Numbered from the stretch's first letter, positions 15,487 to 58,429 are shown. The stretch is 64,000 nt of DNA from an uncultured Gammaproteobacteria bacterium (GCA_964415025.1 CAYPXF010000001.1:78629-142628); one strand, 5' to 3'. A program made the numbers and translations. Notes: a model not told the origin generated them from the letters alone.

Positions 15487-15492
15487 GCAAAT

Positions 15493-15528: not shown

Positions 15529-15586
15529 AATTTTCCGCCTGAAAATTAAAAAACACTAGGTTATCGAGGTGTGCTATTACCCTATA

Positions 15587-15798
15587 TTGACATGCTTATT
15601 GCCTGGTATACAATAAAACTAGAACCTTCTAATACCCGCTACAATATCCCCCCAATGGGCAAAGCCACATCAAGTCGTAACCAATTTGCTTTTGATCTGA
15701 CAACATTATGAGGGGGAAACATGGACTGCCGTGTCCATGGTCTATTCTGTCAATCCCAGGAAGCATAGCCTACCATTTATGCTGCCTGGGATTTTTTT
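15587..15798 (+). ncRNA. candidate small transcription unit (promoter TTGACA-16-TACAAT at 15587-15614, terminator 15755-15798); roughly 180-nt RNA with a 15-codon micro-ORF
   Basis: consensus-like promoter; terminator cccaggaagcat/atgctgcctggg plus T7; GAGGGGGAAAC-ATG micro-ORF MDCRVHGLFCQSQEA at 15721-15768. Confidence 0.35.
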
Positions 15799-16118
15799 AT
15801 ACACGTGATAACGAAATGAATAAACTCAACTAGCCGGGGGTCTGATAAGTAGTGTTTGACATATTCGGCGACTTATTTATACTATTAGAGCAGTGTAATA
15901 TACTGCGATTATACTCCATATCTAACAGCCGGGTCATGCGTGGCCTGGCTGCGAACATCGATCTTTTAATATAAAAATCCTTGATCTGGTTCTGCCCGAT
16001 GTACATACAGGTCTTGTTTTCTCTCAACAACGCCACTCGGTAACGGGTGGCGTCTTTATTACAATAAAATATTTGTCATTCCCAAAAATAACCCGCTGCA
16101 TTCATAGTCAAATCAAGC

Positions 16119-16183
16119 CGCCCGCTGCGCGGGAGATTCTTCACCCACGCACCTTCAAAAGGTGCGCGGTTCAGGATGCCAAC
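16119..16183 (+). repeat. two-hairpin GC-rich intergenic motif, copy B
   Basis: about 80% identical to 7646-7710 with a compensatory a>g / t>c change in stem 2. Confidence 0.55.
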
Positions 16184-16220
16184 AAGGGTAAGGATAGAGT
16201 ACCCACTGACAAATATTTAT

Positions 16221-17510: not shown

Positions 17511-17651
17511 AAATAAATACGTTTCATAAATATCGTTGTCGTTTACGTTGTCGCGGCGCGTACCGTTAATCGGTTACGTTGTACGGCCGATGAAATGAAA
17601 CCGCTAGACTAAACCGATACGAGCCGCGAAACCTAAATCCTCAAACGAAAA

Positions 17652-19409
17652 CTATTCTTCAGGCGGTATGCCGTAATAATTCAGCATAAATTTCGTTAAA
17701 TTACCGAAGAGCGGCGCGGCAGAAGACTCGGCCCACTGCACATCACGCGGTCGATTAATCCGTACGCACATAACAAAAGCCGGATCATCTGCCGGGGCAA
17801 ACCCGCAAAACGATCCAATGGTATGGTTGGGATCATAGCCCGGGCCGTCCTCGCGCGGGACCTGGGCCGTACCCGTCTTGCCGGCCACAAAATACCCGTC
17901 CACGCCGGCCCGGCTGCCGTGGCCGCTCTGCACCACATTGACAAGCATGGCACCCAATGTGGTAGCGGTTCTCTGGGTAATCGGTTGGCCGAGCACGGCT
18001 GGTTCTGTTTTGACACGGAATCCGTCCGGCTTAACAATTTCATCAACAATATACGGCCGCATCAGCTGGCCGCCGTTGGCAATCGCGCCAAAGGCGTTGG
18101 TCATTTGCAGGAGGGTCACTGAAATACCCTGGCCAAACGAACCGGTCGCCATATACAGCTCCTTATGCGAGGCTAACGACGACACGTCGCCATTTGCTTC
18201 TGAATTCAGCTCCAGATCATAGCTCTCTCCGAAGTGGAACGCCCGAACATATTCATCGAATTTTTCCGGACCGATCTGCCGGGCGGCGAAAATAACGCCG
18301 GTGTTGAGCGACTGTTCCAGTACCTGGGTCATGGTATTAATGCCGTGGGCTTTGCCATCGAAGTTTTTGATGGTATATTTTCCGATTTCCTCACTGCCGG
18401 TGTCTTCGTACGTTGTATTCGGACTGACCGCGCCTTCATTCAGGGCCGCGGCCATGGTAATGGGTTTGAAAACCGAGCCTGGCTCATAAATATAGTAGGT
18501 TGCCGGATTAATGTACACATTAATATCTTCTACCTCGTTATATTCATTGGGATTAAAATCAGGCGATCCGCATAGTGATTTCACTGCGCCCGTCTGTGGA
18601 TCCATGATGATAACGCTGCCGCTGTCCGCGCCGTGCTGGGCCACCCACTCGTTTAGCTGTTTACACGCCTCATACTGTATCGTATGGTCGACGGTTAAAA
18701 TAAGATTGTCGCCGTCTTGTGCCTCTTCCAGCAGTTTAGTTCCAAACGTGATCCACCGGCCCTGGGCATCTTTTTCTGCCTGTAAATAACCTTCTTCACC
18801 GGCTAATTCATCATTCCAATACTCTTCGAGTCCGTACTGCCCGACCCGAACATCGTTCTGCATCCCGACAAAACCGAGCAGATGAGAGGCGATATTATTT
18901 TCCGGATAATACCGGTATAGCTGTTCTTGGAATTTTATACCGGTAAATTCCAGCTGCTTGATTTCGTTCACTACTGTTTCATCCACCTGGCGTTTAAGAG
19001 GCTCGTACAAGTCATTTTCCTTGGTCAGCCGCGGTACTAGTTCAGCTTCCTCCAGCTCCAGAAGCGGGGCCAGTGCTTTGGCTACCATTTCCGGATTTTC
19101 TACGCGTTTGGGCTCGGCATAAACTAGATAATATGATTTATTCGTGGCCAGAGGGTAGAGTGTGCCTGGTGTGGCATGGTCTCGGACCAGTATTTCACCC
19201 CGTTTGGGCAGCAGCTTTTCAGACAATCCATGCTGGTCTGCGGCGATTGCTTCATAAAACGAATGCTGGAAAATTTGGATATCGCCCAGCCGGATGGCGA
19301 TCAGCGCGGCAAATATAAAAATAACCGCACGTAATACATCAATGCGGTCGAGCCGATGCTTCGGCTGTTTGTCCTGCTGTACGCGTGATCGGACGCGCCG
19401 ACTCGTCAT
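17652..19409 (-). CDS. ftsI: penicillin-binding protein / peptidoglycan D,D-transpeptidase FtsI
   Basis: N-terminal TM; SVFK (SxxK), SLN (SxN), KTGT motifs; dcw context. Confidence 0.85.
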   Translation of the reverse strand: MTSRRVRSRVQQDKQPKHRLDRIDVLRAVIFIFAALIAIRLGDIQIFQHSFYEAIAADQHGLSEKLLPKRGEILVRDHATPGTLYPLATNKSYYLVYAEPKRVENPEMVAKALAPLLELEEAELVPRLTKENDLYEPLKRQVDETVVNEIKQLEFTGIKFQEQLYRYYPENNIASHLLGFVGMQNDVRVGQYGLEEYWNDELAGEEGYLQAEKDAQGRWITFGTKLLEEAQDGDNLILTVDHTIQYEACKQLNEWVAQHGADSGSVIIMDPQTGAVKSLCGSPDFNPNEYNEVEDINVYINPATYYIYEPGSVFKPITMAAALNEGAVSPNTTYEDTGSEEIGKYTIKNFDGKAHGINTMTQVLEQSLNTGVIFAARQIGPEKFDEYVRAFHFGESYDLELNSEANGDVSSLASHKELYMATGSFGQGISVTLLQMTNAFGAIANGGQLMRPYIVDEIVKPDGFRVKTEPAVLGQPITQRTATTLGAMLVNVVQSGHGSRAGVDGYFVAGKTGTAQVPREDGPGYDPNHTIGSFCGFAPADDPAFVMCVRINRPRDVQWAESSAAPLFGNLTKFMLNYYGIPPEE

Positions 19410-36301: not shown

Positions 36302-37036
36302 GTGCTGAAAATTGCACCAAAAACAAAAAGTAAAAACAAAATGAAAATCAAATTGTGGCGACGTTTTTTCGGTGTGGCGGCAGCCTGTTCCGGCATGCTG
36401 CTCCTGGCCTCCCCTGGAGTCGCCCAGACACAACCCATCACTCCGGACGATATCTATACCCGCATTAATAACGTGCGAGCTGTCAACCATCTCAATGCAT
36501 TATCCCGTAATGCCGCTCTGGCGCGCGCGGCCCACCTGCGTGCCGCTGATATGACTGCGCGTGGCTATTTTTCGCATACCAGTCCCGACGGTGACATGCC
36601 CTGGGACGTGGCGCTGCGGGCTGGCTATGACTATGAACTCATCGGCGAAAACCTGGCCATTGACTGGCTGCGTCCAGATGATGTCATCACTGCCTGGCTC
36701 GACAGTAGCACCCACCGTGAAAATATCATGAAGCCAGCGTATACTGAAACCGGCATTGCCGTCACCTGCCAGTCCGCTGGCTGCTTAATCGTCCAGCTGT
36801 TCGGTAACCGTGCTGCTATCGCACCGCCAACACCCCAACAAAATATTACGGTAGTAAAAGAGCCTTTCCCGGCTACTCCCAGTATACCAAATTCATCACC
36901 CGGAGAAAAATCTGCGGTTCTAGGCAGTACTATTATAAAACAGAACTCCCCTGTTTTGTCCGTGCGCGATCGCTACCCGAACTGCATTGCTTTTAGTTAT
37001 TACCCAGTCGCACTTGGAGTTTACATGTTGCAATAA
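36302..37036 (+). CDS. secreted CAP/SCP/PR-1-like domain protein
   Basis: signal peptide; YFSHTSPDG...GENLA...HRENIMKPAYTETGIAV. Confidence 0.7.
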   Translation: MLKIAPKTKSKNKMKIKLWRRFFGVAAACSGMLLLASPGVAQTQPITPDDIYTRINNVRAVNHLNALSRNAALARAAHLRAADMTARGYFSHTSPDGDMPWDVALRAGYDYELIGENLAIDWLRPDDVITAWLDSSTHRENIMKPAYTETGIAVTCQSAGCLIVQLFGNRAAIAPPTPQQNITVVKEPFPATPSIPNSSPGEKSAVLGSTIIKQNSPVLSVRDRYPNCIAFSYYPVALGVYMLQ

Positions 37037-37369: not shown

Positions 37370-37927
37370 GTGACAAACATGAAAAAAATTCTCGTATCCA
37401 TGCTTACCATTGCTTTTGTCGGCGCACTGTCTGTCGGTGCTACTAGCGCTGTATTTACCAGCCAGGCGACGGTAGAGGACAACACGTTCGCGACTGGTAC
37501 ACTCGAAGTACGGGTTAACGGTCAATCCAGCATCGACGGATTTGATTTTGACAATGCCGCACCAGGCGACTGCTATGACGGCCAGTTCACCGTCAATAAC
37601 TACGGTGCGCCATGGTTTGCCGGTCCGTCAACACTTGACGCCAACACCCTGACTGTCAGCGCCGTACAGGACGGCGGCAGTACCTATCTCTTCGATAAGC
37701 TGGAGATTGATGTCAACGCTAACCGCGGCTGGCCTACGGCCATGGACGTCTACGACGGCTCACTGTCTGGTCTGACCAGCGCTGATCTGCTAGCTCCGCG
37801 CTGGAGCAGTCTGGTTCCTGGTAATTCCGAGGATGTCTACTACGAAGTATGCCTCCCGGCTGACGCTGACGACTCATATCAGGGTCTGAGCACAACCTTT
37901 GATTTTATGGTTGATGCGACTACCTAG
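37370..37927 (+). CDS. TasA/camelysin-like secreted protein (SipW-cognate family)
   Basis: signal peptide then ATSAVFTSQATVEDNTFATGTLEV matching the TasA/CalY N-terminal signature (AxFxDxxxxxxxxFxxGTLxL); likely ATG start at 37379 with RBS AGGGGGTGA. Confidence 0.6.
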   Translation: MTNMKKILVSMLTIAFVGALSVGATSAVFTSQATVEDNTFATGTLEVRVNGQSSIDGFDFDNAAPGDCYDGQFTVNNYGAPWFAGPSTLDANTLTVSAVQDGGSTYLFDKLEIDVNANRGWPTAMDVYDGSLSGLTSADLLAPRWSSLVPGNSEDVYYEVCLPADADDSYQGLSTTFDFMVDATT

Positions 37928-37933: not shown

Positions 37934-39304
37934 ATGAAGTCTTTTAGGCTGTTTATCCTGAAGATAAACAGCCACCTAAGGTTTTATAATATGAATCGTA
38001 ATCCACTGACTAACAAACGTGCCAGAAAAAAAATCATACAAAACACAGTCAATGTGGTGGTGCTGTTTGTGTTTGTCATCGCTCTCCTTATCGTCATGTC
38101 GCACGCGGGATTTGCCGGCATGAAGGTGCTGTCCGTGCAGTCGGGGTCAATGTCCCCCACCATTCCCACCGGCAACCTCGTTTTTGTTACTCCCAGTGAT
38201 TCGTACGAGGTAAATGATATCATTACCTTCCGATCGTCGGGCGAGCGCGAACTCATCACGCACCGCATCGTATCTGCCGATCCGCAGTCAGCCGAACCGC
38301 AGTTCCAGACACAGGGTGATGCAAATGATGTGGCTGATTCATATACCGTACCCCAGCGCGGTATAGTCGGTAAAGTCAGACTGTCCCTGCCGCTGCTGGG
38401 ATATGTCATCAGTTTCGCCAAACAACCGCTAGGATTAACCCTGCTGATAATTATTCCCGGAACAATCATCATTTACGAAGAGTTGAAAAAAATCAGGCGC
38501 CAGTGGAATAAAATAAAACGTGCGAAAGGATCGGGGTATTCTGTCAGAACTGCTGCTGGTGAAGCATGGCAATCAAGCATACGTACAATTAAAAAGGCAC
38601 TGCGCAACGGCCGGGATAAATTTAATATGATTTTCTTCATACTATTTATCGGGACTCTGAGCTTAATTGCCGCACCTGCCGCTGCCATCACACAAACCGC
38701 AGGAGATTTACAGATAACATACCCGCATTCTCCCCTGTTCCAGGTATCCGATGCCGTACCGGACACCGCCATGACCCGTTCGATAAATGTTTTTAATACT
38801 GGAGACGAACCACATACAGTCGGACTCGTTATGGACAGTAATCCGTCCCTACCATTAAACCAGATACTACAAATCAATATCAGACATGATGCTGAATATA
38901 TTTACGGCTATGAGCTGGGTGGGCCTACTATTACCGATGCCATACACCAAGGAGAAATCCCCCTCTGGACACTAAACCCTCAGGAAACAGCTATTTTTCA
39001 TATATCCCTCTATCTGCCACACACTGCGAATAACCAGTTACAAGGCCAGGAAACGGTTTTTAACCTGGGTATTGGCTTTACCCAGACTGAAACAGCCCCA
39101 CTTAACCCTGTGGATAACCCATCAGATGGCCTGGTTTTAGGCGACCAAACGGAAAAACCCAAGCAAACCCCTACAAACGGTACAATACTGGGGATTGATA
39201 TAGAATTACCCCGCACTGGAGGAATATTATCCTTATCCACAGCCGCAGTCATTACCAGTATAAGTATATTATTTATCAGAAAAAACAATACTAAAAATTA
39301 CTAA
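37934..39304 (+). CDS. SipW-type signal peptidase I fused in frame to a second secreted domain ending in LPRTG sorting signal
   Basis: SVQSGSMSPTIPTGNLVFV (S26/SipW catalytic Ser), two TM helices; after residue about 225 a new hydrophobic segment MIFFILFIGTLSLIAAPAAA; C-terminus LPRTGG plus TM plus RKNNTKNY. Confidence 0.6.
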   Translation: MKSFRLFILKINSHLRFYNMNRNPLTNKRARKKIIQNTVNVVVLFVFVIALLIVMSHAGFAGMKVLSVQSGSMSPTIPTGNLVFVTPSDSYEVNDIITFRSSGERELITHRIVSADPQSAEPQFQTQGDANDVADSYTVPQRGIVGKVRLSLPLLGYVISFAKQPLGLTLLIIIPGTIIIYEELKKIRRQWNKIKRAKGSGYSVRTAAGEAWQSSIRTIKKALRNGRDKFNMIFFILFIGTLSLIAAPAAAITQTAGDLQITYPHSPLFQVSDAVPDTAMTRSINVFNTGDEPHTVGLVMDSNPSLPLNQILQINIRHDAEYIYGYELGGPTITDAIHQGEIPLWTLNPQETAIFHISLYLPHTANNQLQGQETVFNLGIGFTQTETAPLNPVDNPSDGLVLGDQTEKPKQTPTNGTILGIDIELPRTGGILSLSTAAVITSISILFIRKNNTKNY

Positions 39305-39321
39305 TTGCTCGTTTTAACCCC

Positions 39322-39349
39322 TTGACAAAAATACTATTTTTGCTAAGAT
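39322..39349 (+). promoter_or_regulatory. sigma70-like promoter TTGACA-16-TAAGAT
   Basis: 39322 ttgaca, 39344 taagat. Confidence 0.35.
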
Positions 39350-39697
39350 AGGTAGAACACAAAACAAAAAGTAGATATTGACAAAAACAAGCCAAAAATA
39401 CCAAAATACTATCGCACCTTAGGAGAATAACGCACTTTTGTACAAATAACATTTGGAGGAATGTTAAAAGCCAACATTGAGTTATAAAAAGGAGGAAACT
39501 CAAGGAAAAATAAAAAAAATCAGCACAACCCAGTCGCAATTCTCAATTTTTTGAAGCTATAAAACAGCTGATTTATGCCTTATTTAAAATTTTGTAACTT
39601 AGTGTTGGCTTTTTTTGTTTGCTTAGCAAAATTTACAAGCCGAAAAATACTACCCAATAATACAAATTCGGCGATGAAAATTATACTAAGCAAACAA

Positions 39698-39796
39698 TCC
39701 CGCTGCAGCCGAGCAATGCGAGGCGGATAGCGGGATAGCAAGCTTATTCACAACCCGAGCAAAAGCGAGGGGTCGTACAGAACCGAGCAAAAGCGA
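39698..39796 (+). promoter_or_regulatory. three direct repeats CCGAGCAA(A/T)RGCGA plus GC hairpin upstream of the adhesin gene
   Basis: repeats at 39709, 39754, 39782; hairpin atcccgct...agcgggat 39698-39736. Confidence 0.4.
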
Positions 39797-39860
39797 AAAA
39801 ATCGCGCTCAAATAACAAATATTTATATATATTTTAGAAAATAACTAATCAAACAAGTAT

Positions 39861-42800
39861 ATGAGTCTAAACAACCTTATTTCCGTGAAAACACGCCAGG
39901 CCCTGTCAAAAGGCCTGCATGTTGTCGCACTCACTGTCCTGGTCCTGAATATGTCCATGGTCGGTGTGTTTGCTGTACCGCAGGCTGCTGCAGCCAGCAC
40001 TCCCGGTGAAAGCGCTGGATTAACAGTCAGCTCTGGAGTTTGCCCAGAAGGTGACGTCAAATTAGAGGCTGACGCAGTAACGTATGAGGACACAGAAGGT
40101 AGTGCTACTATCAGCTATCATCAGGGTGATGAGCATAACTATGTTACTTGGGAAGCAACAACCGGCTATACTATCACCGGCGTCTGCCTCAAGTACGGCA
40201 CTACGCTCGACAATCCTGATCCAGCAGACGGTCAGGCCGGTCCATATGACCATGATATCAGCCACGTCGTGTTGCACACAGCTGAAGATGGACCAGTATT
40301 GCCTGATCCAGTGCGTAATGAACTTCCCCAGGCATGCGGTATGCCGATTGAAGTCATGATGGTGATTGACAGATCCGGCAGTATGGATGATGCCGGCGGC
40401 GGTGAGCCGCTCGCCTCGGTCAAGGCCGCGGCCAATGAATTCGTCAATCTGATGAATTTTGATCCGTCTGACCCTATTGCCACAGACCGCGCCGGCGTAA
40501 CTTCATATGATGGATATGCCACGCTGCGCCAAACATTGACCGATAACAGCACGGACGTTATCGATGCTATCAACGCTTTGCAGGCAGCAGGCAGTACTAA
40601 TATCGGAGAAGGCGTATTAACTGGCCAGAACGACCTCATGACTAACAAACGGATTGACCCCCTCGAAGCACAGCCAATCATGATAGTATTGTCAGATGGC
40701 GTAGCGAATCGATCAAGTAATGATACTTCTTGCGAATTATGGCCGAGCGAACATACTAACTGCACTATTGATGCTGTTGAACAGGCTAATGCTGCTAAAA
40801 CCGACGATACTGTAATTTTTACCATCGGCTATTTTACACAGGCTGTTGAAAACGCATATCCTGCATCAATCGCTTTAGCGCGCCAGACAATGAATTATAT
40901 GGCATCGCAGGAAGACTACTACTTCGAAACAGACTCAACCGCTAACCTCCAGGAAATTTATAATCAAATCCAGTTTGAGCTGTGCGATCCAAATCTTGAT
41001 TTCAGCAAATCAGTAGAAAACCTGACCCGCCCGGGCTATACGACAGAAGCCATGCCGGCACACGCTGGTGATGTGATAAAATATTCGCTGACGGCACAGA
41101 CGACTGATGTATGGCCGGCAGAGGATGTCGTAGTGGAAGATGATATTTCTGATATCCTGGAATACGCTACCGTAACAAATGCGTATGACGGTACTGTCAC
41201 CGGTGGCACAATCTCCTACCCGGCTGTTGATCTCGAGGGTAATGATTCAGTGACGAAATATTTCGAAGTTACTATCAACACTGCCGATACCTGGCCGACA
41301 GACGGTGATTTTGTCATGACAAACGTATACGGCAACAGCACCGAGGTATATATCGAGGAATTCGGCACGATCCACGGCTATAAATTCCATGACTATGACC
41401 GTGACGGCGAATGGGACGATAGCGAACCAGCTCTGAACGGTATCACTATCAAGCTCTACCAGGGCGATGCACTCATCGATGAAATGGTGACTGGCGACGG
41501 TGTAGCAGTTGGGTATTACCAATTTACCGACCTGCCAGCCGGTGATTACACAGTTATGGAAGTCAAGCCAAACGGCTATGTAAATACAACCCCCATTTCC
41601 GTGCCAGTAACAGTGTCAGCCAACAGCACCGAGCGTGTTGACTTTGGTAACGACGCTGCCGAATGTAAATTCGAACTGACGAAAGAAGCTACCGAATACG
41701 TTGATGTAAACGGTGCCATAACCTATACCCTGTTTTATGAAAACGGTAACTGCACCGGCGGCGGTGTTAAGGTAAAAGACTATATCCCCGACTATACGAC
41801 CTACGTGCCCGATTCCGCTAATCCGTCAGCTACGTTTGATGGGGAAAAAGTACTGTGGAATATCGGCACAGTCGAACCGGGTGAATTCGGCACGCTGACA
41901 TTTCAGGTAACTGCTGATGACCGCGACCAGTGCGGCGACTGGGAAATCCCCAATACCGCCTACTTCTGGGCAAATGAAATGCCGAACTGGGACGATAACT
42001 ATAGCAATACTGTCTATACCACCGTACACAAAAATTGTGAAGGCGACCTGACTGTTATTAAGAACGTCATCGGCGGTGAGATGGAAGGACACAACCCAGA
42101 TGATTGGACTATGGTAGCCAACGGCCCGGAATATAGAGAATTTGCAGGTAGTGCAACTGGCGTCACCCACACCTATGATGCTGGTTCATATGTGATCAAT
42201 GAAAAAGACGGTCCAGCTAACTACACGCTATCGTTTTCTGAAAACTGTGATGAATATGGAAATGTCACTATTGAACATAGTGATAACAAAACCTGCACCC
42301 TGACGAATGAGCGCGATACCGCTACCGTCAGAATAAATAAATTTGTCGAATATGCTGACGGCTCTACCAAGAAAAATCCGGATAACTGGTCATGGCAGTG
42401 GTCAAACCAGTATGCTGACGAGTCTGGTATTGCTGGCGGTATGCAACGAACCGTATTATCCAATGTCGAATACACCATTACCGAAGATACAACCCACTAC
42501 CCAGCTGATAACTACAATACGTCATGGGTGTGTTATCCTGCCGGTGGCGTAGGTATAGCTACTGATGCGAACAAGATGCAGCCGATGTTCCACACAGGCA
42601 CGTCATTTGACGTAACACTCGAAAAAGACCAGCATATTGTCTGCACCTTTACTAATATCCGCGAAACGACTGATATCACTTTTGATAAGGTTGTTGTTGG
42701 CAGCGACATGGCTGATGACAACTGGACGTTTGCTGTTGATGGTCAAGGTGATTACAAGGATGGTGATACTGTCACCCTCCCGACTAATGAAACATTTACC

Positions 42801-44144
42801 GTGACCGAGTCATCAGAGTATGACAATCTCTTCACCCTGACTAATGCGTCCGGTGCCTGCGAGCTCGATAACGGAGTAATCACACTGTATACAGACGGCC
42901 GCAGTGACACTTGCGTTGTCGAGAATACCCGTAATACCGGCGACCTGACCCTGGTAAAAGAAATCACCGCTTCAGAACTCAAACCAGGCGGCTTCATCAC
43001 GTACCAGCTGACCTATGCCAACAACGGCAATATTGATCTCACTGGGGTACAAATAACTGACGACTATCCGCAGCAATACGTGACGGTAACAAACAGCGGC
43101 ACCGGCGCTGACAACGGTGATACCATTGTCTGGAATATCGGCGATCTGCCGATTGATACCACAGGCACTGTTACCTATACCGTCAGTATCGATGAATCAA
43201 CACCGGCGGACACTGATATTATCAACATCGCCGTCATCACCTCTGACCAGACCGGTCCATATCAGGCCAGCGCTACTACAGAAATACCTGAAACGCCTGC
43301 CGGGCCCGTTCTGACCATCGATAAAACCGTCGGCGCTGACTTCGTCAATCCTGGCGATACAGCTACCTATACGGTTGTTATAGAAAATATTGGTGACACC
43401 ACCGCGACTAATGTCGAATTAACCGACCTCCTGCCTGTTGGCTTCACTTTTGTAGAATTCAGCACCGGCCTGTATACCTGGGAGCTCGGTGACCTGGCTC
43501 CAGAAGCGTCATTCACGCTGACATACGATGTCCTCATCGGTGAAGATGTTACTGTTGGTACGTATGAAAACTTTGCAGTTGCTTCTGCTGACAATCATCC
43601 TAACGTGCATGACCAGGCTTTGCTGGAAGTACGCGTCCCGACCGTCCTGGCCGAGGAAGCTGATCCAGTCCTGCAGATCGTCAAAACTGCTGATAAAGAA
43701 TTTATCAACAAAGGCGACAGCGTTACCTACACCGTAATTGTCACCAATGTCGGTGACGAGGATGCTGAGGCAGTCGCGCTCAACATCATGGTTCAGGACA
43801 TCATGCCGGCCGGCTTCACCTTTGAGGACGGTACGGTTACCAAAGTCTGGGCCCTGGGCGACCTGCGCGTCGGCGAATCACGGGAAATTTCCTACACCGG
43901 TATTTCCGATGACACGGTCCTGCCGGGTATGTACGAAAACCTGGCCGTAGCCTGGGCCGATAACCATGACAAGGTGGACGATTCAGTATCTGTCGAGGTA
44001 CGCGAACCCCAGGTGCTGGGCGAAGAACTGCCGACCACTGGCGGCTCCCTGCTCCACTACATCTACTTCATCGCTGCCGGACTGATTATCGCTTTCGCCG
44101 CCTTTGTTCTGAAACTCACCGCCTCTCCCCGCAGCCGGTCATAA
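39861..44144 (+). CDS. giant LPXTG-anchored surface protein: VWA domain, Cna-B/SdrD-B-like domain, multiple DUF11 (TIGR01451) repeats
   Basis: signal peptide; VWA MIDAS VIDRSGSMDD...GSTNIGEG...VLSDGVAN; DUF11 units such as ATYTVVIENIGDTTATNVELTDLLPVGFTFV; C-terminus LPTTGG plus TM plus RSRS. Confidence 0.8.
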   Translation: MSLNNLISVKTRQALSKGLHVVALTVLVLNMSMVGVFAVPQAAAASTPGESAGLTVSSGVCPEGDVKLEADAVTYEDTEGSATISYHQGDEHNYVTWEATTGYTITGVCLKYGTTLDNPDPADGQAGPYDHDISHVVLHTAEDGPVLPDPVRNELPQACGMPIEVMMVIDRSGSMDDAGGGEPLASVKAAANEFVNLMNFDPSDPIATDRAGVTSYDGYATLRQTLTDNSTDVIDAINALQAAGSTNIGEGVLTGQNDLMTNKRIDPLEAQPIMIVLSDGVANRSSNDTSCELWPSEHTNCTIDAVEQANAAKTDDTVIFTIGYFTQAVENAYPASIALARQTMNYMASQEDYYFETDSTANLQEIYNQIQFELCDPNLDFSKSVENLTRPGYTTEAMPAHAGDVIKYSLTAQTTDVWPAEDVVVEDDISDILEYATVTNAYDGTVTGGTISYPAVDLEGNDSVTKYFEVTINTADTWPTDGDFVMTNVYGNSTEVYIEEFGTIHGYKFHDYDRDGEWDDSEPALNGITIKLYQGDALIDEMVTGDGVAVGYYQFTDLPAGDYTVMEVKPNGYVNTTPISVPVTVSANSTERVDFGNDAAECKFELTKEATEYVDVNGAITYTLFYENGNCTGGGVKVKDYIPDYTTYVPDSANPSATFDGEKVLWNIGTVEPGEFGTLTFQVTADDRDQCGDWEIPNTAYFWANEMPNWDDNYSNTVYTTVHKNCEGDLTVIKNVIGGEMEGHNPDDWTMVANGPEYREFAGSATGVTHTYDAGSYVINEKDGPANYTLSFSENCDEYGNVTIEHSDNKTCTLTNERDTATVRINKFVEYADGSTKKNPDNWSWQWSNQYADESGIAGGMQRTVLSNVEYTITEDTTHYPADNYNTSWVCYPAGGVGIATDANKMQPMFHTGTSFDVTLEKDQHIVCTFTNIRETTDITFDKVVVGSDMADDNWTFAVDGQGDYKDGDTVTLPTNETFTVTESSEYDNLFTLTNASGACELDNGVITLYTDGRSDTCVVENTRNTGDLTLVKEITASELKPGGFITYQLTYANNGNIDLTGVQITDDYPQQYVTVTNSGTGADNGDTIVWNIGDLPIDTTGTVTYTVSIDESTPADTDIINIAVITSDQTGPYQASATTEIPETPAGPVLTIDKTVGADFVNPGDTATYTVVIENIGDTTATNVELTDLLPVGFTFVEFSTGLYTWELGDLAPEASFTLTYDVLIGEDVTVGTYENFAVASADNHPNVHDQALLEVRVPTVLAEEADPVLQIVKTADKEFINKGDSVTYTVIVTNVGDEDAEAVALNIMVQDIMPAGFTFEDGTVTKVWALGDLRVGESREISYTGISDDTVLPGMYENLAVAWADNHDKVDDSVSVEVREPQVLGEELPTTGGSLLHYIYFIAAGLIIAFAAFVLKLTASPRSRS

Positions 44145-44171
44145 GACCGCATCGCGGTTACTATAAACCAA

Positions 44172-44204
44172 AAAGACCCCGAGCATGTGCAAAGGGTCTT
44201 TTTG
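44172..44204 (+). terminator. rho-independent terminator
   Basis: aaaagacccc-gagcatgtgcaaa-gggtctttttgg. Confidence 0.5.
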
Positions 44205-44304
44205 GTTGGCGAGAGACTCTTTTGTCGACGGGATCCTGAATCAGGTTCAGGATGACATGTTGTTATATTACCTTGTCATTCCGGGCTAGGCCCAATTATT
44301 ATAT

Positions 44305-44655
44305 TCACAAAAACTCCCGGCAAATCCTCTCGATAACACCTCGCATGTTTTCATACACGTCTTCATTCCTGAACCGCAAAAATCGTATGCCAAACTGTTC
44401 TATGTACTTCTGTCGCTGGTAATCATATTCTTCCCGGCCAATGTGCGACGGGCCGTCAACTTCTATAGCCAATTTCAGTTTAGGACAATAAAAATCAACT
44501 ATATAATTCCCCACGCTGTACTGCCGGCGGAATTTGTAGCCGTATAACCGCTTATTCCGCAGCTGCGCCCACAGTAGAGCCTCGGCCTGCGGGGACTCCT
44601 TCCGCAGTTTCTTACGTCGTTTTTTCATTGACTGCTTGTTGAATGCGAATGTCAT
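44305..44655 (-). CDS. DUF559 / Vsr-like endonuclease domain protein
   Basis: YIVDFYCPKLKLAIEVDGPSH...FGIRFLRFRNEDV (E-x-D-G-x2-H Vsr-like core). Confidence 0.7.
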   Translation of the reverse strand: MTFAFNKQSMKKRRKKLRKESPQAEALLWAQLRNKRLYGYKFRRQYSVGNYIVDFYCPKLKLAIEVDGPSHIGREEYDYQRQKYIEQFGIRFLRFRNEDVYENMRGVIERICREFL

Positions 44656-44666
44656 AGTTTGTTTGT

Positions 44667-44908
44667 GGAACTACCTCCCCGCTATCACCTCCCCTCCGGC
44701 AGCCCCTTAACTTCATTGAACCCGCCCAGGCTCTTCCCCTCCTTGGAAAGGAGGGGTAACCATCCTCGTTACTTTTAGTAACTGACGTGGGACGGGGAGG
44801 TAGTTCCAGAGCACCCAGTCCACTCTATTCACCGGCCTCGGCTAGGAGGGACGGTTGTCTTACTTCCCAAGGAGGGGTGAATATTCTCGTTACTTTTAGT
44901 ATGGTGGG
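44667..44908. repeat. structured intergenic repeat block: 15-bp perfect inverted repeat plus two copies of a roughly 36-bp unit
   Basis: ggaactacctccccg (44667-44681) and cggggaggtagttcc (44793-44807); units 44745-44780 and 44866-44901 (CCAAGGAGGGGTRA...CTCGTTACTTTTAGTA); inner hairpin cccctcc-ttggaaa-ggagggg. Confidence 0.5.
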
Positions 44909-45171
44909 TGGTGTGGGGAGGATGAAAAACAGAAGGGGAGGATTACATAAAACAAAACCTTCCTGACCAGGGAAGGCTCTGCTGTTATTATACCATATCC
45001 CCCCACAGACATTTATGCTTTGACAATAATGCCATCACGTGATATTGTATGTTAATAGCAACGTTGACAAAAAATACCTTATTTTACTATAATTTGAGAG
45101 TACTAATACAAAATAAAAACTACTAATAAACCACAAAAAATAAAGAAATTATTAGTATTATCAACAATTAA

Positions 45172-48100
45172 ATGAACAAATCTATGCACAAGCACACATT
45201 ACGCTTGAGCAAGCTAGCAACCCCCCTCCTGGTCGTGACGGTGGCGGTTTTTGGTTTTGCTCTCACCGCCCACGCGGATGATGCGGGTAGCGGCGCAATT
45301 TGGACTACTACCGGTAGCTGTGGTGATCCGCAAAATGTAAACCAATACCATACAGGAGAAACCGTGTTCATTAATGGTGCAGGCTTTTCTACTAACCATG
45401 AGTATGATTGGGTTATTAGAAAACCTGGGGTAAACGGTGATATTCTTATCAATGGACAACACACTACTGATGCAGATGGCAAATTTTGTTTTCCTGCAGT
45501 AAGCCTCGACGCCGGTGCAAATGGTGTGTACCAGGTTAAATTTGGTGAAGTCAAGGGAGATAATTTTAAGGTTGTCTCTATCCCCCGCTATACTTCTGGG
45601 GATACCTGCCCACGCGGCTATACACCAGAATTATTGGACTCATACGACATCAACAGTACAGACAAAAACGGAGTAAATTTTGGCGTTACTGCAGGTAATA
45701 CATATCTATTCCATGCCTCCGGCTGGTATAATGCTAGCAATAATATTATGGCAGATGCGGGATACTCTTGGAACCAAAGTGGCCCTTTACCCGACTATGG
45801 TATTAATGGAACGGGTAGCAACTATGGTGCACACGCCTTACTTGGAGACTTGGGTGATGGAGTTGGGGTTGTTATGTGGGGCGTATTCAATGCACAAAAC
45901 ATATATGACTTTTACTATCAACCCACTACGAACAATATACAATTCCTTATAGGTGATCGATACAGCGATTGGTTCAATACCCCTTGGGACAATCAAAAAG
46001 GAATGAAAGATGATAATTCAGGCTTATTAACTCTTGATGTTTACGAATGTCAGCCTGAACCAATGAAAATAGTTGCTCACAAGATTACCTGTGAAGACTA
46101 CGCTGATTTACCTGAATGGGGAGTCGGAGCAGCAGATATTGATAAAGATACTGCTCAAAATTGGGTTACTTCCCATAAGAGCTGTGATTTCGCTAAAGAC
46201 TGGAAATTTGAGTGGGGTGACCACAATGCTAAGAACCCCGGCGATACACATTACGGTACAGCAGCAGAGGCAGGAAAGAAAGGATGGCACACCTTCGGTC
46301 CTACCGACAGCAATGGCATGGCCACGACAACCATAGATGACATACAGAAGAATTTCTGGTTCCGTGAAGTTTTACAGCTTGGCTATATCCCCTTCACTTA
46401 TGGCCCTGAAGGGAACCGGAATACCAATTCACTTTCAGCACAGGTTTATTGTAAATCAGATGTACTAAACTACGATAACTACGATCGCATTGATGATCCT
46501 CACTACGGAGAAACAATATATTGTGTTGCATTCAATGCTGAAGTCCCGGATCCATCTGTCATCCAGGGTCGCAAATACGATGACGTGAATGGCAACGGCT
46601 ACCATGATTCAAATGACACCGAAACACGTATGGATGGCTGGACTACCCGCCTCTACGACGAAAACTGGAACAGTGTCGAAGATATGAACAGCAATAACAG
46701 TATGGTCACCGGCGACACCGGCAATCCCGGTCAGTTTGCATTCGACGTCATGCCTGGCACTTATAATGTTTGCGAGGTTATGCAGAATGAGTGGCAGCAG
46801 ACCGGTCCCCTAGTTGGTACTCATCCGGTGAATTTCGATCTCCAGGACCAGAATGATGCCACCGCGGTCGCTAACCAATCCGGCATGCATGATGAGGGTT
46901 CGACCTGCTGGCAAGTGGAAATTGATGCTCAAGGCGGCGAATCGTACGGCTGGCTGAAATTTGGTAACTACTATGCAGAATGTGGAAACAAAATAAAAGA
47001 TAGCGACGAAACGTGTGATGATGGCGCAATGAATGGCCAACCAGGATATTGTAACAATGAATGTACCGGAGTAACCGCGACAGATGAAAAGAAAATTCAG
47101 ATAAATAAAACCGTCGATCCGGCCATAGCAACTCACGGTGATACGATTACCTATACCATCACTGCTACTAACGCCGACGACACTGACACCTGTGATAATG
47201 CTACTTTAACCATTACTGATGATATAACTGATGTGCTCGCCGATGCCGTACTAGTAAGTACAGACCCGTCCGTTGTCCCGGATAACAATGTACTTACCTG
47301 GACGTTTGATAACGTATCTTGCGGTGACCCCAAAACAGCCACGGTAACTGTAGAAGTAACTAATGAGGCCTTTGACGGTGCTGTTGTTGAAAATATCGCC
47401 TGGGTCATGGATCAGAATGAAAATCAGGCCACTTCTAAACAGGTAGAAACAGCTATTTCAGTCGACAGTCCCGTGCTCGAGTTAACCAAAACAGCTGCCG
47501 AGGGCCCCTTTAACCCCGGTCAGACTGTCGAGTACACCGTGACAGTGACGAACAATGGCACGGCTGACGCGACAAACGTCGTGCTGACTGATGCATTACC
47601 GGACAATATGATGTTCCAGGACGGCACGACGACCAAAACCTGGACCTGGGATATAATAGCGGTAGGCACCAGCCAAGAGGCTGCCTATACCGCCATCATC
47701 GATGATGAAGCAACTGCCAATACATATACAAATAATGCAACTGTGACGGCAGATAGTCTCGATCCAGTCAGTGCCAGCGCTGATACAGAGGTGATTGTAC
47801 CGATCGTGCTTGGCGATGCCGCGCCGTTCTTCAACATCACAAAAACGGCTGACAAAGATTTCGCCGCACCAGGAGAAACTGTTGCCTATACAGTAGTTGT
47901 CACTAATGACAGCGATGTTGACGCACTCAACACTGTCATGACAGATACATTACCGATCGGCTTTGTATTCAAAGGCAGTACTGACACGGTCAAAAACTGG
48001 GACCTGGGCACCATGGCCGCTGGCCAGAGCCGCACTATTACCTATGACGTCACCATTGACCAGGCAGCTGGCGAAGATATGTATACCAACACGGTAACGG

Positions 48101-48300
48101 TGACAGCTAATGACGCTGGACTGGTATCAGACACGGCCACTGTCGAGGTACGCAAACCGGCCGTGCTCGGCGCTGAAACAGAGGAAACTGTATTACCGGT
48201 CACCGGCGGTTCCCTGCTCCACGTGCTCTATGTGCTGGGTGCCGGACTGATCGTCGTGTTTTCCGGATTTATCCTAAGGCTCACCTCGTCCCGAGGTTAA
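45172..48300 (+). CDS. giant LPXTG-anchored surface protein: Cna-B/SdrD-B-like domain, Cys-rich repeat, DUF11 repeats
   Basis: signal peptide; CGNKIKDSDETCDDGAMNGQPGYCNNEC Cys-rich repeat; DUF11 units (ATYTVVVTNDSDVDALNTVMTDTLPIGFVF); C-terminus LPVTGG plus TM plus SSRG. Confidence 0.8.
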   Translation: MNKSMHKHTLRLSKLATPLLVVTVAVFGFALTAHADDAGSGAIWTTTGSCGDPQNVNQYHTGETVFINGAGFSTNHEYDWVIRKPGVNGDILINGQHTTDADGKFCFPAVSLDAGANGVYQVKFGEVKGDNFKVVSIPRYTSGDTCPRGYTPELLDSYDINSTDKNGVNFGVTAGNTYLFHASGWYNASNNIMADAGYSWNQSGPLPDYGINGTGSNYGAHALLGDLGDGVGVVMWGVFNAQNIYDFYYQPTTNNIQFLIGDRYSDWFNTPWDNQKGMKDDNSGLLTLDVYECQPEPMKIVAHKITCEDYADLPEWGVGAADIDKDTAQNWVTSHKSCDFAKDWKFEWGDHNAKNPGDTHYGTAAEAGKKGWHTFGPTDSNGMATTTIDDIQKNFWFREVLQLGYIPFTYGPEGNRNTNSLSAQVYCKSDVLNYDNYDRIDDPHYGETIYCVAFNAEVPDPSVIQGRKYDDVNGNGYHDSNDTETRMDGWTTRLYDENWNSVEDMNSNNSMVTGDTGNPGQFAFDVMPGTYNVCEVMQNEWQQTGPLVGTHPVNFDLQDQNDATAVANQSGMHDEGSTCWQVEIDAQGGESYGWLKFGNYYAECGNKIKDSDETCDDGAMNGQPGYCNNECTGVTATDEKKIQINKTVDPAIATHGDTITYTITATNADDTDTCDNATLTITDDITDVLADAVLVSTDPSVVPDNNVLTWTFDNVSCGDPKTATVTVEVTNEAFDGAVVENIAWVMDQNENQATSKQVETAISVDSPVLELTKTAAEGPFNPGQTVEYTVTVTNNGTADATNVVLTDALPDNMMFQDGTTTKTWTWDIIAVGTSQEAAYTAIIDDEATANTYTNNATVTADSLDPVSASADTEVIVPIVLGDAAPFFNITKTADKDFAAPGETVAYTVVVTNDSDVDALNTVMTDTLPIGFVFKGSTDTVKNWDLGTMAAGQSRTITYDVTIDQAAGEDMYTNTVTVTANDAGLVSDTATVEVRKPAVLGAETEETVLPVTGGSLLHVLYVLGAGLIVVFSGFILRLTSSRG

Positions 48301-48324
48301 TATACGCAGTACAAACTGCACCAA

Positions 48325-48352
48325 ACCGTCCCGCTCCAGCGGGGCGGTTTTT
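48325..48352 (+). terminator. rho-independent terminator
   Basis: accgtcccgc-tcca-gcggggcgg plus T5. Confidence 0.5.
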
Positions 48353-48412
48353 GGTTGATTTTCATCATTAAAAATGATATACTATAGTAAACTGTCATCA
48401 AGGGGGTGACAA

Positions 48413-48655
48413 ATGGCAACTGATCTGATTCTAATTGATCTTTCAAAATGTGAGATCAGTAAACACGCGCTAGAGCGCTTTATGCAGCGCACCGGTAAAA
48501 CCGATGAGGCCAGAGCCTTAATCGAGCTTCGGGCAATGCTCGGCCAATGTAATTATAAACATCCGTGCGGAAATTTTTGCTATACATTTTCATCGTTTGA
48601 TTGGAGTATTGTGGCAAATATTAGAGATAGTATTATCATCACTATTTACCACTAG
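48413..48655 (+). CDS. small hypothetical protein (80 aa) with the same translation-initiation region as the TasA-like gene
   Basis: RBS/ATG context agggggtgacaaATG identical to 37366-37381. Confidence 0.4.
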   Translation: MATDLILIDLSKCEISKHALERFMQRTGKTDEARALIELRAMLGQCNYKHPCGNFCYTFSSFDWSIVANIRDSIIITIYH

Positions 48656-48782
48656 CGCGTATATTAAGCCTTTCTATTATATGAAGGGCTTTCTTTTTGC
48701 GCACTTACCCTTGACAAATTAAGTATGCTATGGTAGATTATATTGTTATAAATATGAATTGTACGATATAATATAAAAAGGT

Positions 48783-50378
48783 ATGACTGCTAAACAAGCA
48801 CAAAAAAATATCAGCCATCATTGTAAACGTGCGGGCGAGCATACAAAACATTTTTTCATACCGCACCACGGCAACAACCACCATCCCCACGCTTTGCGAC
48901 CACCGGCACTACGTTTGTACGCCGTGTCAATTATTGGTATCAAATTGTTTGTTAGTGCTTTTCTCTTTGCCGCGTACCCGTCGACAGGTGAATTCGCGAC
49001 CATTGCCCGGGCTGAAATACTAAACCTAACCAATAGCTCCCGAGCTGCTGCCGGCGTGGCTGCGTTATCTATGAGTACGACCCTGAACCAGGCTGCCCAG
49101 CTCAAGGCCGAGCATATGCTGGCACACGGCTATTTTGCCCATACAGCGCCAGACGGCACCAAGCCATGGTCTTTTCTCAAACAGGCCGGCTACGACTATA
49201 CTGCCGCGGGTGAAAATTTGGCTATGGACTTTACCGAGGCCAGCACAGTGCACGCCGCCTTTATGAACAGCCCGTCGCATAAGAAAAATATCATGAACGC
49301 CAAGTACACTGAAATGGGTGTGGCCGTACTCGAGGGTGAGCTAAACGGTACGCAGACGATTATTTTAGTCGAGTTTTTCGGTACACCGTACCAATCTCCT
49401 GCTACTCCGGTAGCCGAACCCGAGCCAACGCCAGCTCCCGAACCTGAACCAGTCCCTACTCCTGCGCCCGAGCCTGCCCCAACACCAGAACCTACTCCTG
49501 CGCCTGAACCTACTCCTGCGCCTGAACCTACTCCGGCGCCCGAGCCAGAACCCGAGCCAGCACCTACTCCTGCTCCCCGGCCAACAGCGGCTGAAATCGC
49601 GGCTAATCCAATTAACTACCAGGCCGAGCTCTCTGACCAGAGCGCTGAACAGCTGGGTATCAAAACACTGGAGGAATTTGACTACTGGGTAGAGTTTAAA
49701 AACACCGGCACGGCCACTTGGACTAAAAGCGGCGAGTATTATGTCGCCCTGAACGTAACCAACCCGGCTGGCCGACACAGCGAGTTTGAGCATGAAACCT
49801 GGGTCGAATACTATCGTCCGGCCGTATTACTACAGTCTTCAGCTGCCCCGGGAGAGGTTGGCCGGTTCGAATTCACGCTCCAGGCACCAGAAGAGGCCGG
49901 TACGTACGAAGAATCGTTTGGTCTGGTAGCAGAAGACCTGGCCTGGATTGACGGCGGTTCGATCGAATTGCCTATCGTAGTCGTGGCTCCGCCCGAAAAA
50001 AGCACTGAAACCGAAGTAGAGGTGGTTAATACCCCGCTCTCTACCTCGCCTGACCAACCTGACACCCCGTCTGAACCAACACCCACAATAGAACCACTGG
50101 CCACTGAAGAAGCCGAGGGGCCTATCGTGGAATCACAGTCATTTGACAGCGACGAACAAAGTTTTGTGGCGAAAATTATCGAATACTCGCATCAATACTA
50201 CGCAATTATACTGGCTTTTCTGATAATCGCGCTCGGCATCAATATATTTGTTGATGTCCGCGTGCAGCACGCTCATGTTATTGCGCAGACACTGATCGTC
50301 ATCATTATAGCGTCTGCCGCTATTTTCCTGCACCCGCACTTCCTGGAACAGCTGCCAAAAGCCTTTAAAATCATATAA
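48783..50378 (+). CDS. surface protein: CAP/SCP domain, Pro-rich (PAPEPTP) linker, Ig-like beta-sandwich domain, C-terminal TM anchor
   Basis: HGYFAHTAPDG...GENLA...HKKNIMNAKYTEMGVAV; linker PAPEPEPVPTPAPEPAPTPEPTPAPEP...; C-terminal hydrophobic helices. Confidence 0.65.
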   Translation: MTAKQAQKNISHHCKRAGEHTKHFFIPHHGNNHHPHALRPPALRLYAVSIIGIKLFVSAFLFAAYPSTGEFATIARAEILNLTNSSRAAAGVAALSMSTTLNQAAQLKAEHMLAHGYFAHTAPDGTKPWSFLKQAGYDYTAAGENLAMDFTEASTVHAAFMNSPSHKKNIMNAKYTEMGVAVLEGELNGTQTIILVEFFGTPYQSPATPVAEPEPTPAPEPEPVPTPAPEPAPTPEPTPAPEPTPAPEPTPAPEPEPEPAPTPAPRPTAAEIAANPINYQAELSDQSAEQLGIKTLEEFDYWVEFKNTGTATWTKSGEYYVALNVTNPAGRHSEFEHETWVEYYRPAVLLQSSAAPGEVGRFEFTLQAPEEAGTYEESFGLVAEDLAWIDGGSIELPIVVVAPPEKSTETEVEVVNTPLSTSPDQPDTPSEPTPTIEPLATEEAEGPIVESQSFDSDEQSFVAKIIEYSHQYYAIILAFLIIALGINIFVDVRVQHAHVIAQTLIVIIIASAAIFLHPHFLEQLPKAFKII

Positions 50379-57795: not shown

Positions 57796-57993
57796 TTAAA
57801 ACGGTTTAAACGGATAATTGCGCACATCCTGCTCTGCTTTATCATGTGTCACTTTCTTGTCGCTTCGCTGCCACCCTTCACTCGTTTTTTTCATGAGGTA
57901 CAGTATGACACCGAGCCCAATGGCGATCAGCATGGGGAATCCCAGACTGTGCGCATCCGTGAAAAAATAGACAATATACTCAAGCCATTCCAT
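57796..57993 (-). CDS. small membrane protein (65 aa)
   Basis: one TM; overlaps the start of the downstream gene. Confidence 0.3.
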   Translation of the reverse strand: MEWLEYIVYFFTDAHSLGFPMLIAIGLGVILYLMKKTSEGWQRSDKKVTHDKAEQDVRNYPFKPF

Positions 57994-58429
57994 CGTCTTT
58001 GTGCGTTAATTCAACAGTGGTTTTCCGCCTGATACCAAGCGTGGCGATAATAAGAATCGCGGTATAAATTAGAAATCCGTACACACATGCCGGCAGATCA
58101 CTAATTGGGGTTCGCAGTGTAACCAATTCATAAAATGAAAGTGACCCGGAAAATAACACGCCGACCACGGCGAGCCATAATATGCCCGCCATCCAGCCGC
58201 GTGTTTTGTTTCTCAAACCAAACAGCGCGAGTACGCCTACTGTTACATACATGCCAAAGCCGTATACGCAGGTAGGTAAGCCAAACAGCTCTATCGGTTT
58301 CGAACCGCAGCTGACTACCGCCTCTTGGCAGCCCGGTCCCCACAGTGTGTAGTAGGACAAATAACCGGAAAAAATAGTGCCGCCAATACCCAGTAGTAGC
58401 AGCACCCAATAGTATCGTATATAAATCAT
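57980..58429 (-). CDS. integral membrane protein with internal repeat (LPxCVYGF x2) and Cys pair, possible thiol-oxidoreductase-like
   Basis: 4-5 TM; GPGCQEAVVSC loop cysteines; repeated PTCVYGFGMYV / PACVYGFLIYT. Confidence 0.35.
   Translation of the reverse strand: MIYIRYYWVLLLLGIGGTIFSGYLSYYTLWGPGCQEAVVSCGSKPIELFGLPTCVYGFGMYVTVGVLALFGLRNKTRGWMAGILWLAVVGVLFSGSLSFYELVTLRTPISDLPACVYGFLIYTAILIIATLGIRRKTTVELTHKDDGMA

Follow-up and report, generated by a model that had tools for sequence, protein, structure and literature searches.

Two neighbouring genes in a stretch of DNA deposited as an uncultured Gammaproteobacteria bacterium (GCA_964415025.1, CAYPXF010000001.1:78629-142628; this whole stretch of 64,000 nucleotides is "the window" below, and positions are counted from its first letter) encode LPxTG surface proteins, p1 and p2, that are probably two sortase-type fibrillar adhesins on the cell surface of a Patescibacterium, with isopeptide-stabilised stalks and exchangeable tips. 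On its gene sequences the host organism is best placed among the Patescibacteria (candidate phyla radiation, CPR); the best non-self matches of the RsmH encoded in the window are to Patescibacteria, at 67-68% identity, and to a Candidatus Kerfeldbacteria protein, at 63%.

Two surface proteins on one scaffold

39861..44144, + strand: p1, an LPxTG surface protein of 1427 amino acids (aa); open reading frame (ORF), with an identical gene call in public assemblies
45172..48300, + strand: p2, an LPxTG surface protein of 1042 aa

In p1, Pfam and NCBIfam searches give the order signal peptide, N-terminal domain, VWA, CLIPPER-like repeat R0, SdrD_B, CLIPPER R1, three SpaA-type domains, CLIPPER R2-R4 and sorting signal; in p2, a signal peptide is followed by three modules termed N1, N2 and M, an SdrD_B-like domain, a Cys-rich unit, CLIPPER R1-R3 and the sorting signal. 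Nine stalk domains lie between head and anchor in p1, and five in p2. The coordinates and lengths reported for both ORFs in a first-pass annotation of this DNA are correct by ORF calling, and only its word "giant" is too strong, the proteins being of 1.0-1.4 thousand aa (kaa). The public gene call starts p2 at Met5, giving 1038 aa; identical p1 and p2 genes are also found in the gene calls for two sequencing runs' public assemblies and for an NCBI contig of 148,622 bp.

That annotation had also described a common C-terminal grammar of DUF11 units, linker and LPxTGGSLLH, and BLASTP and profile searches bear this out. The stalks are paralogous, with 37% identity over 393 C-terminal aa (BLASTP, E 3e-52), and the match spans the linkers, the motifs LPTTGGSLLH (p1) and LPVTGGSLLH (p2), the hydrophobic helix and the basic tail. 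In each protein the final two CLIPPER repeats are both followed by a linker of the form EV-R/K-x-P-x-VLG/A-E/D. That the stalks had recently undergone gene conversion was considered and rejected: the DNA they have in common amounts to only 38 nt at 79% identity, encoding the linker, so the paralogy is old. The duplication that gave rise to p1 and p2 is older than the split from a syntenic relative, the contig L008 (CAZQBL010000011.1), because L008 has the same gene pair in the same order.

Stalk domains and candidate isopeptide bonds

40986..41360, + strand: p1 CLIPPER-like repeat R0 (K383, D428, N473); its DUF11 match is sub-threshold (19.6 bits), and it aligns with the other repeats
41367..41654, + strand: p1 SdrD_B/CnaB-type domain (K508, E567, N597); PF17210, E 4.4e-11; PF17802, E 5.6e-8
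41661..42041, + strand: p1 CLIPPER repeat R1 (K608, D640, N698); PF01345, 35.9 bits as an isolated segment; repeat alignment
42042..42938, + strand: three SpaA_2/SpaA_3-type prealbumin-fold domains of p1; PF19403, E 4.2e-9; PF20674
42939..44018, + strand: p1 stalk, CLIPPER/DUF7927 R2 and CLIPPER R3 and R4, with VLAEE and VLGEE linkers; PF01345, PF24346, PF25549
46561..46971, + strand: p2 SdrD_B-like CnaB-type domain with an insertion (K468, E535, N599)
47086..48165, + strand: p2 stalk, CLIPPER/DUF7927 R1 and CLIPPER R2 and R3, with VLGDA and VLGAE linkers

The assignment of DUF11 to both proteins holds: PF01345 reaches 177.9 bits in four stretches of p1 and 131.3 bits in three stretches of p2, far above its cutoff of 24.6, and TIGR01451 also matches (107.8 and 99.1 bits; cutoff 24). 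DUF11 was renamed CLIPPER in 2025, and the crystal structure 9IFR is that of a CnaA-like domain with an Asp-catalysed isopeptide bond between Lys and Asn (PMC12617251); with the bond, the domain unfolds at ~80 instead of ~45 degrees C and is protected from proteinase K (PMC12617251). In all eight CLIPPER-like repeats of p1 and p2, Lys, Asp and Asn fall in the same alignment columns. The stalk triads are K1033/D1067/N1122 (R2), K1155/D1189/N1237 (R3) and K1275/D1313/N1360 (R4) in p1, and K646/D683/N741 (R1), K773/D807/N854 (R2) and K891/D925/N973 (R3) in p2. When R3 of p1 is compared with 9IFR (phmmer), K1155 and N1237 line up with the Lys and Asn of the 9IFR isopeptide bond, and D1189 falls on the Asp of the LNDTL of 9IFR, one residue off the published number.

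Lys, Glu and Asn of the CnaB style are also present in the SdrD_B domain and the three SpaA-type domains of p1, and in the SdrD_B-like domain and module M of p2. In the SpaA-type domains they are a Lys of the first strand, a Glu and the Asn of a last-strand C-x-x-x-N (K734/E781/N816, K827/E875/N932 and K943/E983/N1022). The SdrD_B-like domain of p2 has 29% identity to the SdrD_B of p1 (BLASTP) and matches PF17802 weakly; the orthologous segment in L008 matches PF17210 at E 2.5e-8. Judged by these residues, nine domains of p1 and five of p2 are candidate isopeptide domains.

Heads

39861..39995, + strand: p1 Sec-type signal peptide, ~aa 1-45, with basic n-region, hydrophobic core and AAAA/S cleavage region, as read from the sequence
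39996..40340, + strand: p1 N-terminal domain, aa 46-160, family-less
40353..40967, + strand: p1 VWA domain with a metal ion-dependent adhesion site (MIDAS); PF00092, E 2.7e-15; PF13519, E 2.3e-14
45283..45576, + strand: p2 N1, tip domain, aa 38-135, beginning GAIWTTTGSCGDPQN
45577..46059, + strand: p2 N2, aa 136-296, an all-beta candidate ligand-binding module
46060..46557, + strand: p2 module M, aa 297-462, pilin-like
46978..47070, + strand: p2 Cys-rich acidic unit CGNKIKDSDETCDDGAMNGQPGYCNNEC, aa 603-633, a connector ahead of the stalk

The VWA domain of p1 (aa 165-369) scores 57.4 bits against PF00092 (cutoff 23.8). Its MIDAS is complete, with D170-R-S172-G-S174, T246 and D279 in register with the DxSxS...T...D of the solved VWA proteins 9no5 and Mfa5 (6tnj), which confirms the VWA with intact MIDAS proposed earlier for this protein. 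Identity to solved VWA proteins is low, Mfa5 being among the closest solved sequences (E 2.5e-4), and a Pfam search finds no VWA in p2. The domain ahead of the VWA (aa 46-160) has no Pfam match at E<=1; among the homologues gathered just one further protein carries it, P0320 (42% identity), which combines a p1-type N-terminal domain with M and VWA.

The region at aa 36-462 of p2 has no Pfam, NCBIfam or PDB sequence match, and homologue mapping divides it into the three mobile modules N1, N2 and M. These are recurrent surface-protein modules without a family model; like VWA, they recur across many other architectures among the homologues. N1 stands directly behind the signal peptide in p2 and ten other proteins. 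Its AlphaFold2 (AF2) model is well defined (predicted local distance difference test, pLDDT, 85-97), and Foldseek finds just generic macroglobulin (MG)/Ig-like sandwiches for it, for example that of alpha-2-macroglobulin 2p9r, at target-normalised template modelling (TM) scores of 0.59-0.67. N2 is present in five homologues at 44-52% identity; its AF2 model is of low confidence (pLDDT 50-85) and has no specific structural match, and its profile finds nothing in Pfam or PDB at E<=10. The idea that N2 is a PA-IL/LecA-like lectin was rejected on that same search and on an hhalign probability of 0.05% against a LecA sequence. A Foldseek search of N1 plus N2 against viral structures gave generic beta-sandwiches of low TM-score only.

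Module M is found in 59 of 69 homologues, in many architectures, and matches no Pfam family. K304, E399 and N455 (K15, E110 and N166 in alignment numbering) are invariant in 26 diverse sequences, as are the cysteines at 307, 338, 427 and 451, whose predicted disulfides are C307-C451 and C338-C427. In the AF2 model (pLDDT 86.5; predicted TM-score, pTM, 0.85) the Lys lies on the first strand, the Glu on a central strand and the Asn on the last, and the best Foldseek matches are the Gram-positive pilins SpaA, Cpa, RrgB and BaTIE, at probabilities of 0.92-1.0. A profile search with M in a database of 1.84 billion cluster representatives returned 1083 proteins, among which 928 reach E<=1e-30; a single protein can carry as many as four copies of M.

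The first-pass annotation had contrasted a VWA head on p1 with a Cys-rich head on p2. The p1 half of this stands; the Cys-rich unit of p2 (C604, C615, C627 and C631, in the pattern C-x10-C-D-D-G-x9-C-x3-C) is a connector and not a head, because it is a single copy, with no tandem array, and follows the SdrD_B-like domain, ahead of the first stalk repeat. It also falls below curated thresholds, at 15.7 bits for TIGR02232 (cutoff 20.8) and 18.5 bits for PF13948/DUF4215 (cutoff 27), the only families that it matches. The p2-orthologue of L008 has three dispersed units, one of them at the exact p2 position (CGNSIRDEGEQCDG...), and it too stays under the cutoff, at 19.8 bits. More canonical CGDGxxxxxExCD units occur in this orthologue and directly after M in several homologues, which makes the Cys-rich assignment in p2 more plausible. 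The four-Cys acidic unit is shared with the Myxococcus cysteine-rich repeat proteins (TIGR02232/PF13948 DUF4215); unlike them, p2 has one sub-threshold copy as an inter-domain connector, and neither a repeat array nor a head made of it.

Replaced heads in a relative and the spread of module M

The gene order of L008 (PCMT, CAP, a large LPxTG protein, DUF559 on the minus strand, a second large protein) is that of the window. Its first large protein, of 2032 aa, is the positional orthologue of p1: the signal peptides have 45% identity and the last 276 aa 58%, compared with 42% for p1 and p2, and an LPKTG is retained. A VWA is missing from it, and its sequence shows no detectable resemblance to residues 46-500 of p1. 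The p2-orthologue, truncated where the contig stops, has M (52% identity), SdrD_B, the Cys-rich unit and the first CLIPPER repeat in common with p2; it begins with a different N-terminal domain, and lacks N1 and N2. Comparison of the two loci thus shows replaced heads on a conserved stalk and anchor, and this strengthens the earlier description of the proteins as modular, with a common stalk/anchor scaffold that carries differing N-terminal modules. Domain shuffling is a general feature of the family; VWA, M and the p1 N-terminal domain, for example, are found together in other proteins, P0320 among them.

By gene content and synteny L008 is probably a Patescibacterium, and its public Gammaproteobacteria label probably wrong. 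The same uncultured Gammaproteobacteria label, with a module-M match, is found on two other contigs (L063 and L072).

Some contigs with DPANN archaeal labels (Iainarchaeum, Micrarchaeota, Burarchaeum or "uncultured archaeon": L058, L016, L017, L022, L035, L052 and L055) also carry module M. On L058, a 3302-aa M protein (8969-18877) is encoded 8.4 kb from a ribosomal protein L18e gene (214-579; PF17135, E 8.7e-11), and the presence of this gene on L058 supports an archaeal origin of the contig. This suggests that surface-protein modules are common to CPR bacteria and DPANN archaea.

Sorting signals

44025..44144, + strand: p1 sorting signal LPTTGG, hydrophobic helix, basic tail KLTASPRSRS and stop codon
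48190..48300, + strand: p2 sorting signal LPVTGG, hydrophobic helix, tail RLTSSRG and stop codon

The tripartite signal is complete in both proteins, with LPTTG at residue 1390 of 1427 in p1 and LPVTG at 1008 of 1042 in p2, and the tails match only sortase-type anchor models. The sortase family is encoded in more than half of CPR genomes, its distribution outside Microgenomates being patchy (PMC6744442). A sortase lies within 10 kb at 7 of the 79 relatives' loci. In one of these, the Patescibacteria relative L005 (8999-13457), the gene for a 1275-aa module-M protein with an LPxTG-type tail overlaps at its 3' end with the sortase gene (12813-13457; PF04203, E 3e-28), and the two are likely a substrate-enzyme operon. 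Four other homologues (P0028, P0057, P0064 and P0065) end in G-A-P-x-T-G-x-G-G followed by a helix, replacing LPxTG; this may be a variant Patescibacteria sorting signal.

Proposed mechanism and alternatives

The proposed sequence of events is as follows. Sec signal peptides would export p1 and p2, and the LPxTG, hydrophobic helix and basic tail would hold them at the surface, most likely with cleavage of the signal and wall linkage by a housekeeping-type sortase encoded elsewhere in the genome. The N-terminal binding region would be projected on an Ig-like rod of CLIPPER/DUF11, SdrD_B and SpaA-type domains, plus M in p2, and the Lys-Asp/Glu-Asn triads of nearly every rod domain would be expected to form spontaneous intramolecular isopeptide bonds, giving a force- and protease-resistant stalk. 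The MIDAS of p1 would bind a carboxylate of its ligand through a divalent cation, and p2 would present N1 and N2, possibly to a different ligand. Through domain shuffling, heads would be exchanged on an old conserved stalk and anchor, and this would let the lineage attach with differing specificity, plausibly to host or partner cells. The sequence analysis shows the domain content, the triads, the paralogy, the synteny and the replacement of heads; from these we infer anchoring by sortase, the isopeptide bonds, an adhesive role and what kind of ligands are bound. Distinct ligand specificities and host-cell binding, which the first-pass annotation had suggested, would rest on the MIDAS-bearing VWA, the differing heads and the assignment of the organism to the Patescibacteria. 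Binding to host or partner cells seems plausible because Patescibacteria in culture live as epibionts and depend on surface adhesins (PMC10633639, PMC11665869); in the only species that is genetically tractable, several such adhesins are essential (PMC10633639).

A close published parallel to this arrangement is found in CLIPPER-stalk fibrillar adhesins such as Acinetobacter silvestris B9T28_05395 (9IFR; PMC12617251), which likewise have an N-terminal binding region, a tandem stalk of Lys-Asp-Asn CLIPPER domains and a C-terminal anchor. The two systems differ in the anchor (LPxTG, of monoderm type, in p1 and p2; OmpA-like in A. silvestris), the head (VWA or N1/N2; CshA-like in A. silvestris), the stalk, which in p1 and p2 is a mosaic of CLIPPER, SdrD_B, SpaA_2/3 and, in p2, M, and the host, here a Patescibacterium. 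With the staphylococcal Sdr/MSCRAMM LPXTG proteins, p1 and p2 have in common a sortase-type signal, an SdrD_B/CnaB spacer and an N-terminal ligand-binding region; unlike them, they have no Pfam match to an A-region or to Ser-Asp repeats, and CLIPPER dominates the stalk. The architecture is a standard fibrillar-adhesin design and leaves the view of how such proteins work unchanged.

Several observations weigh against the adhesin interpretation. The head of p2 gets no ligand-binding family, N2 having a low-confidence model and Foldseek giving generic beta-sandwiches. The TM-scores of M to pilins are low (0.28-0.43). The isopeptide bonds are deduced from conserved residues and not from measured geometry. 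Both tails fall just under the TIGR01167 cutoff of 15.9 (14.1 bits for p1, 14.5 for p2), and no sortase was found in the 64-kb window (tblastn E>0.39) or in the 3.8 kb past its right end. Nor was any population variation seen: the window matches contigs from SRR7048227 and SRR7048225 without a difference, over 23.1 and 14.2 kb.

Another possibility, though an unlikely one, is that both proteins are held only by the C-terminal transmembrane helix, the LPxTG being a relic or unprocessed because a sortase is lacking or the wall is atypical. The sub-cutoff tails and the ~68 kb of contig free of sortase are what such a state would look like; many homologues in the family also end in a plain transmembrane helix with no LPxTG, and the sortase is patchy outside Microgenomates (PMC6744442). 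Against it, the LPxTG, the GG, the helix and the basic tail are conserved between p1 and p2, a third neighbouring protein ends in LPRTGG, and the L008 orthologue has kept an LPKTG; because of these three observations, the motif is taken to have been retained since the lineage split. Relatives also have a sortase beside such genes.

It is more doubtful still that p1 and p2 are subunits of sortase-assembled pili, with p1 a VWA tip pilin of the RrgA, SpaC or GBS104 type, joined to a shaft by a pilin-specific sortase. The combination of VWA, CnaB/SpaA-type domains and LPxTG is indeed that of a tip pilin: the Gram-positive tip adhesins RrgA, SpaC and GBS104 carry a MIDAS-bearing VWA on CnaB-type domains and end in LPxTG, as p1 does, and the Porphyromonas gingivalis tip adhesin Mfa5 (6tnj/6to1) likewise has a MIDAS-bearing VWA on Ig-like (CnaB-type) domains. 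Module M finds its best structural matches among pilins, and an E-box-like YTVMEVKPNGY occurs in p1. The YPK pilin motif, however, is absent from both proteins; neither a candidate major pilin nor a sortase is encoded in the window, where the only other LPxTG protein is a SipW fusion; and there is no pilus-type cluster at the L008 locus. Compared with Mfa5 and the other VWA tip adhesins, the p1 stalk is much longer, and no shaft gene, pilin motif or pilin sortase is nearby. At 1.0-1.4 kaa, with nine and five stalk domains, the two proteins exceed the lengths usual for tip pilins.

The CPR Pam pilus, a donor-strand system described in a preprint (10.64898/2026.03.03.709456), was also considered and set aside: a term search of the preprint gave no LPXTG, isopeptide, TasA or adhesin, and there is no evident link to p1 and p2.

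Least probable is that p1 and p2 are structural components of the envelope or matrix (an S-layer- or sheath-like coat), or substrate- or metal-binding proteins, and not adhesins: DUF11 does occur in archaeal sheath and porin proteins and in chlamydial envelope proteins (PMC12617251), there is a weak Chlam_OMP6 match, and genes nearby code for TasA-like components of matrix fibres and for secreted CAP-domain proteins, but fibrillar adhesins are built in just this way, with one non-repeat head at the N-terminus of a rod anchored at its C-terminus, the swapping of heads on retained stalks between relatives suits changing targets better than a lattice coat, and a VWA with an intact MIDAS is a ligand-binding module.

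The locus offers a testable pair (one scaffold, two tips, and a relative with its tips replaced) for a problem that is largely unexplained, namely how ultra-small Patescibacteria recognise and hold their hosts. Three recurrent modules with no family model, a conserved pair with swapped heads and the occurrence of M on DPANN contigs take it above the routine. A bolder and quite tentative view is that the locus is a host-range cassette of an episymbiont, in which two ancient stalk/anchor scaffolds carry tips grafted on by lineage; N1, N2 and M would be undescribed families, and M a new isopeptide- and disulfide-locked, pilin-like class of ~1,000 clusters at 50% identity, found in Patescibacteria and DPANN archaea, which would imply that these two radiations of ultra-small symbionts have exchanged attachment parts across domains of life.

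Locus context

37370-37927, + strand: TasA/camelysin-like protein with SipW-type signal peptide
37934-39304, + strand: SipW-type signal peptidase fusion ORF; TIGR02228, E 4.8e-31
44305..44655, − strand: DUF559 gene (Vsr-like endonuclease fold) between p1 and p2; PF04480, E 8.6e-36; in the same place in L008
45064..45093, + strand: perfect sigma-70-type consensus TTGACA-18-TATAAT, ~80 nt upstream of p2; consensus match only
48331..48347, + strand: terminator-like GC hairpin with T-run directly 3' of p2; pattern match only

Both adhesin genes belong to a series of plus-strand genes for secreted proteins, in the order CAP protein, TasA/camelysin-like protein with its SipW-type signal peptide, SipW peptidase fusion with LPRTGG, p1, DUF559 (the one minus-strand gene), p2, another CAP protein and a He_PIG Ig-domain membrane protein. 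Independent transcription of p1 and p2 is proposed because each gene has its own promoter-like site, those of p1 being weaker than that of p2, and a terminator-like site lies 3' of p2.

The second half of the fusion ORF has a hydrophobic segment of its own, a beta-rich domain and the LPRTGG sorting signal. The beta-rich domain has a weak similarity (23% identity over 173 aa, E 8e-4) to the TasA-like protein encoded next to it, and the fusion product may serve as the wall-anchored base of a TasA-like fibre. The TasA-like/SipW-fusion pair is absent from L008.

Secreted proteins with a CAP domain (PF00188) flank the cluster, at 36302-37036 and 48783-50378 (+ strand). The second has a long spacer rich in Pro, Thr and Glu and a sub-threshold match to the NBR1-like Ig family PF16158 (23.6 bits; cutoff 28); L008 has a CAP gene at the same position.

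A vitamin K epoxide reductase (VKOR) gene (57980-58429, − strand) is located ~10 kb away from p1 and p2. In CPR bacteria, VKOR/DsbA-like pairs have been associated with the forming of disulfides in surface and pilus proteins (PMC6744442), and a VKOR gene in the window fits with oxidative folding of the Cys-containing secreted modules of p1 and p2.

The region between DUF559 and p2 (44668-44921) contains a 53-nt direct repeat, at 44748-44800 and 44869-44921, with 75% identity. Its 33-nt core is present in just two copies in the window; the direct repeat includes CCCCTCC/GGAGGGG hairpins and has the inverted repeat GGAACTACCTCCCCG / CGGGGAGGTAGTTCC on its flanks. A structured or known RNA in the intergenic regions was considered and rejected, with no Rfam match at E<=1 over 39250-48900 and a fold z of -1.59 for 44660-44935.

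Towards the start of the window, positions 2001-16000 have a G+C content of 0.30-0.41 (0.46 in one 2-kb bin), compared with mostly 0.45-0.51 elsewhere, and may be an acquired island.

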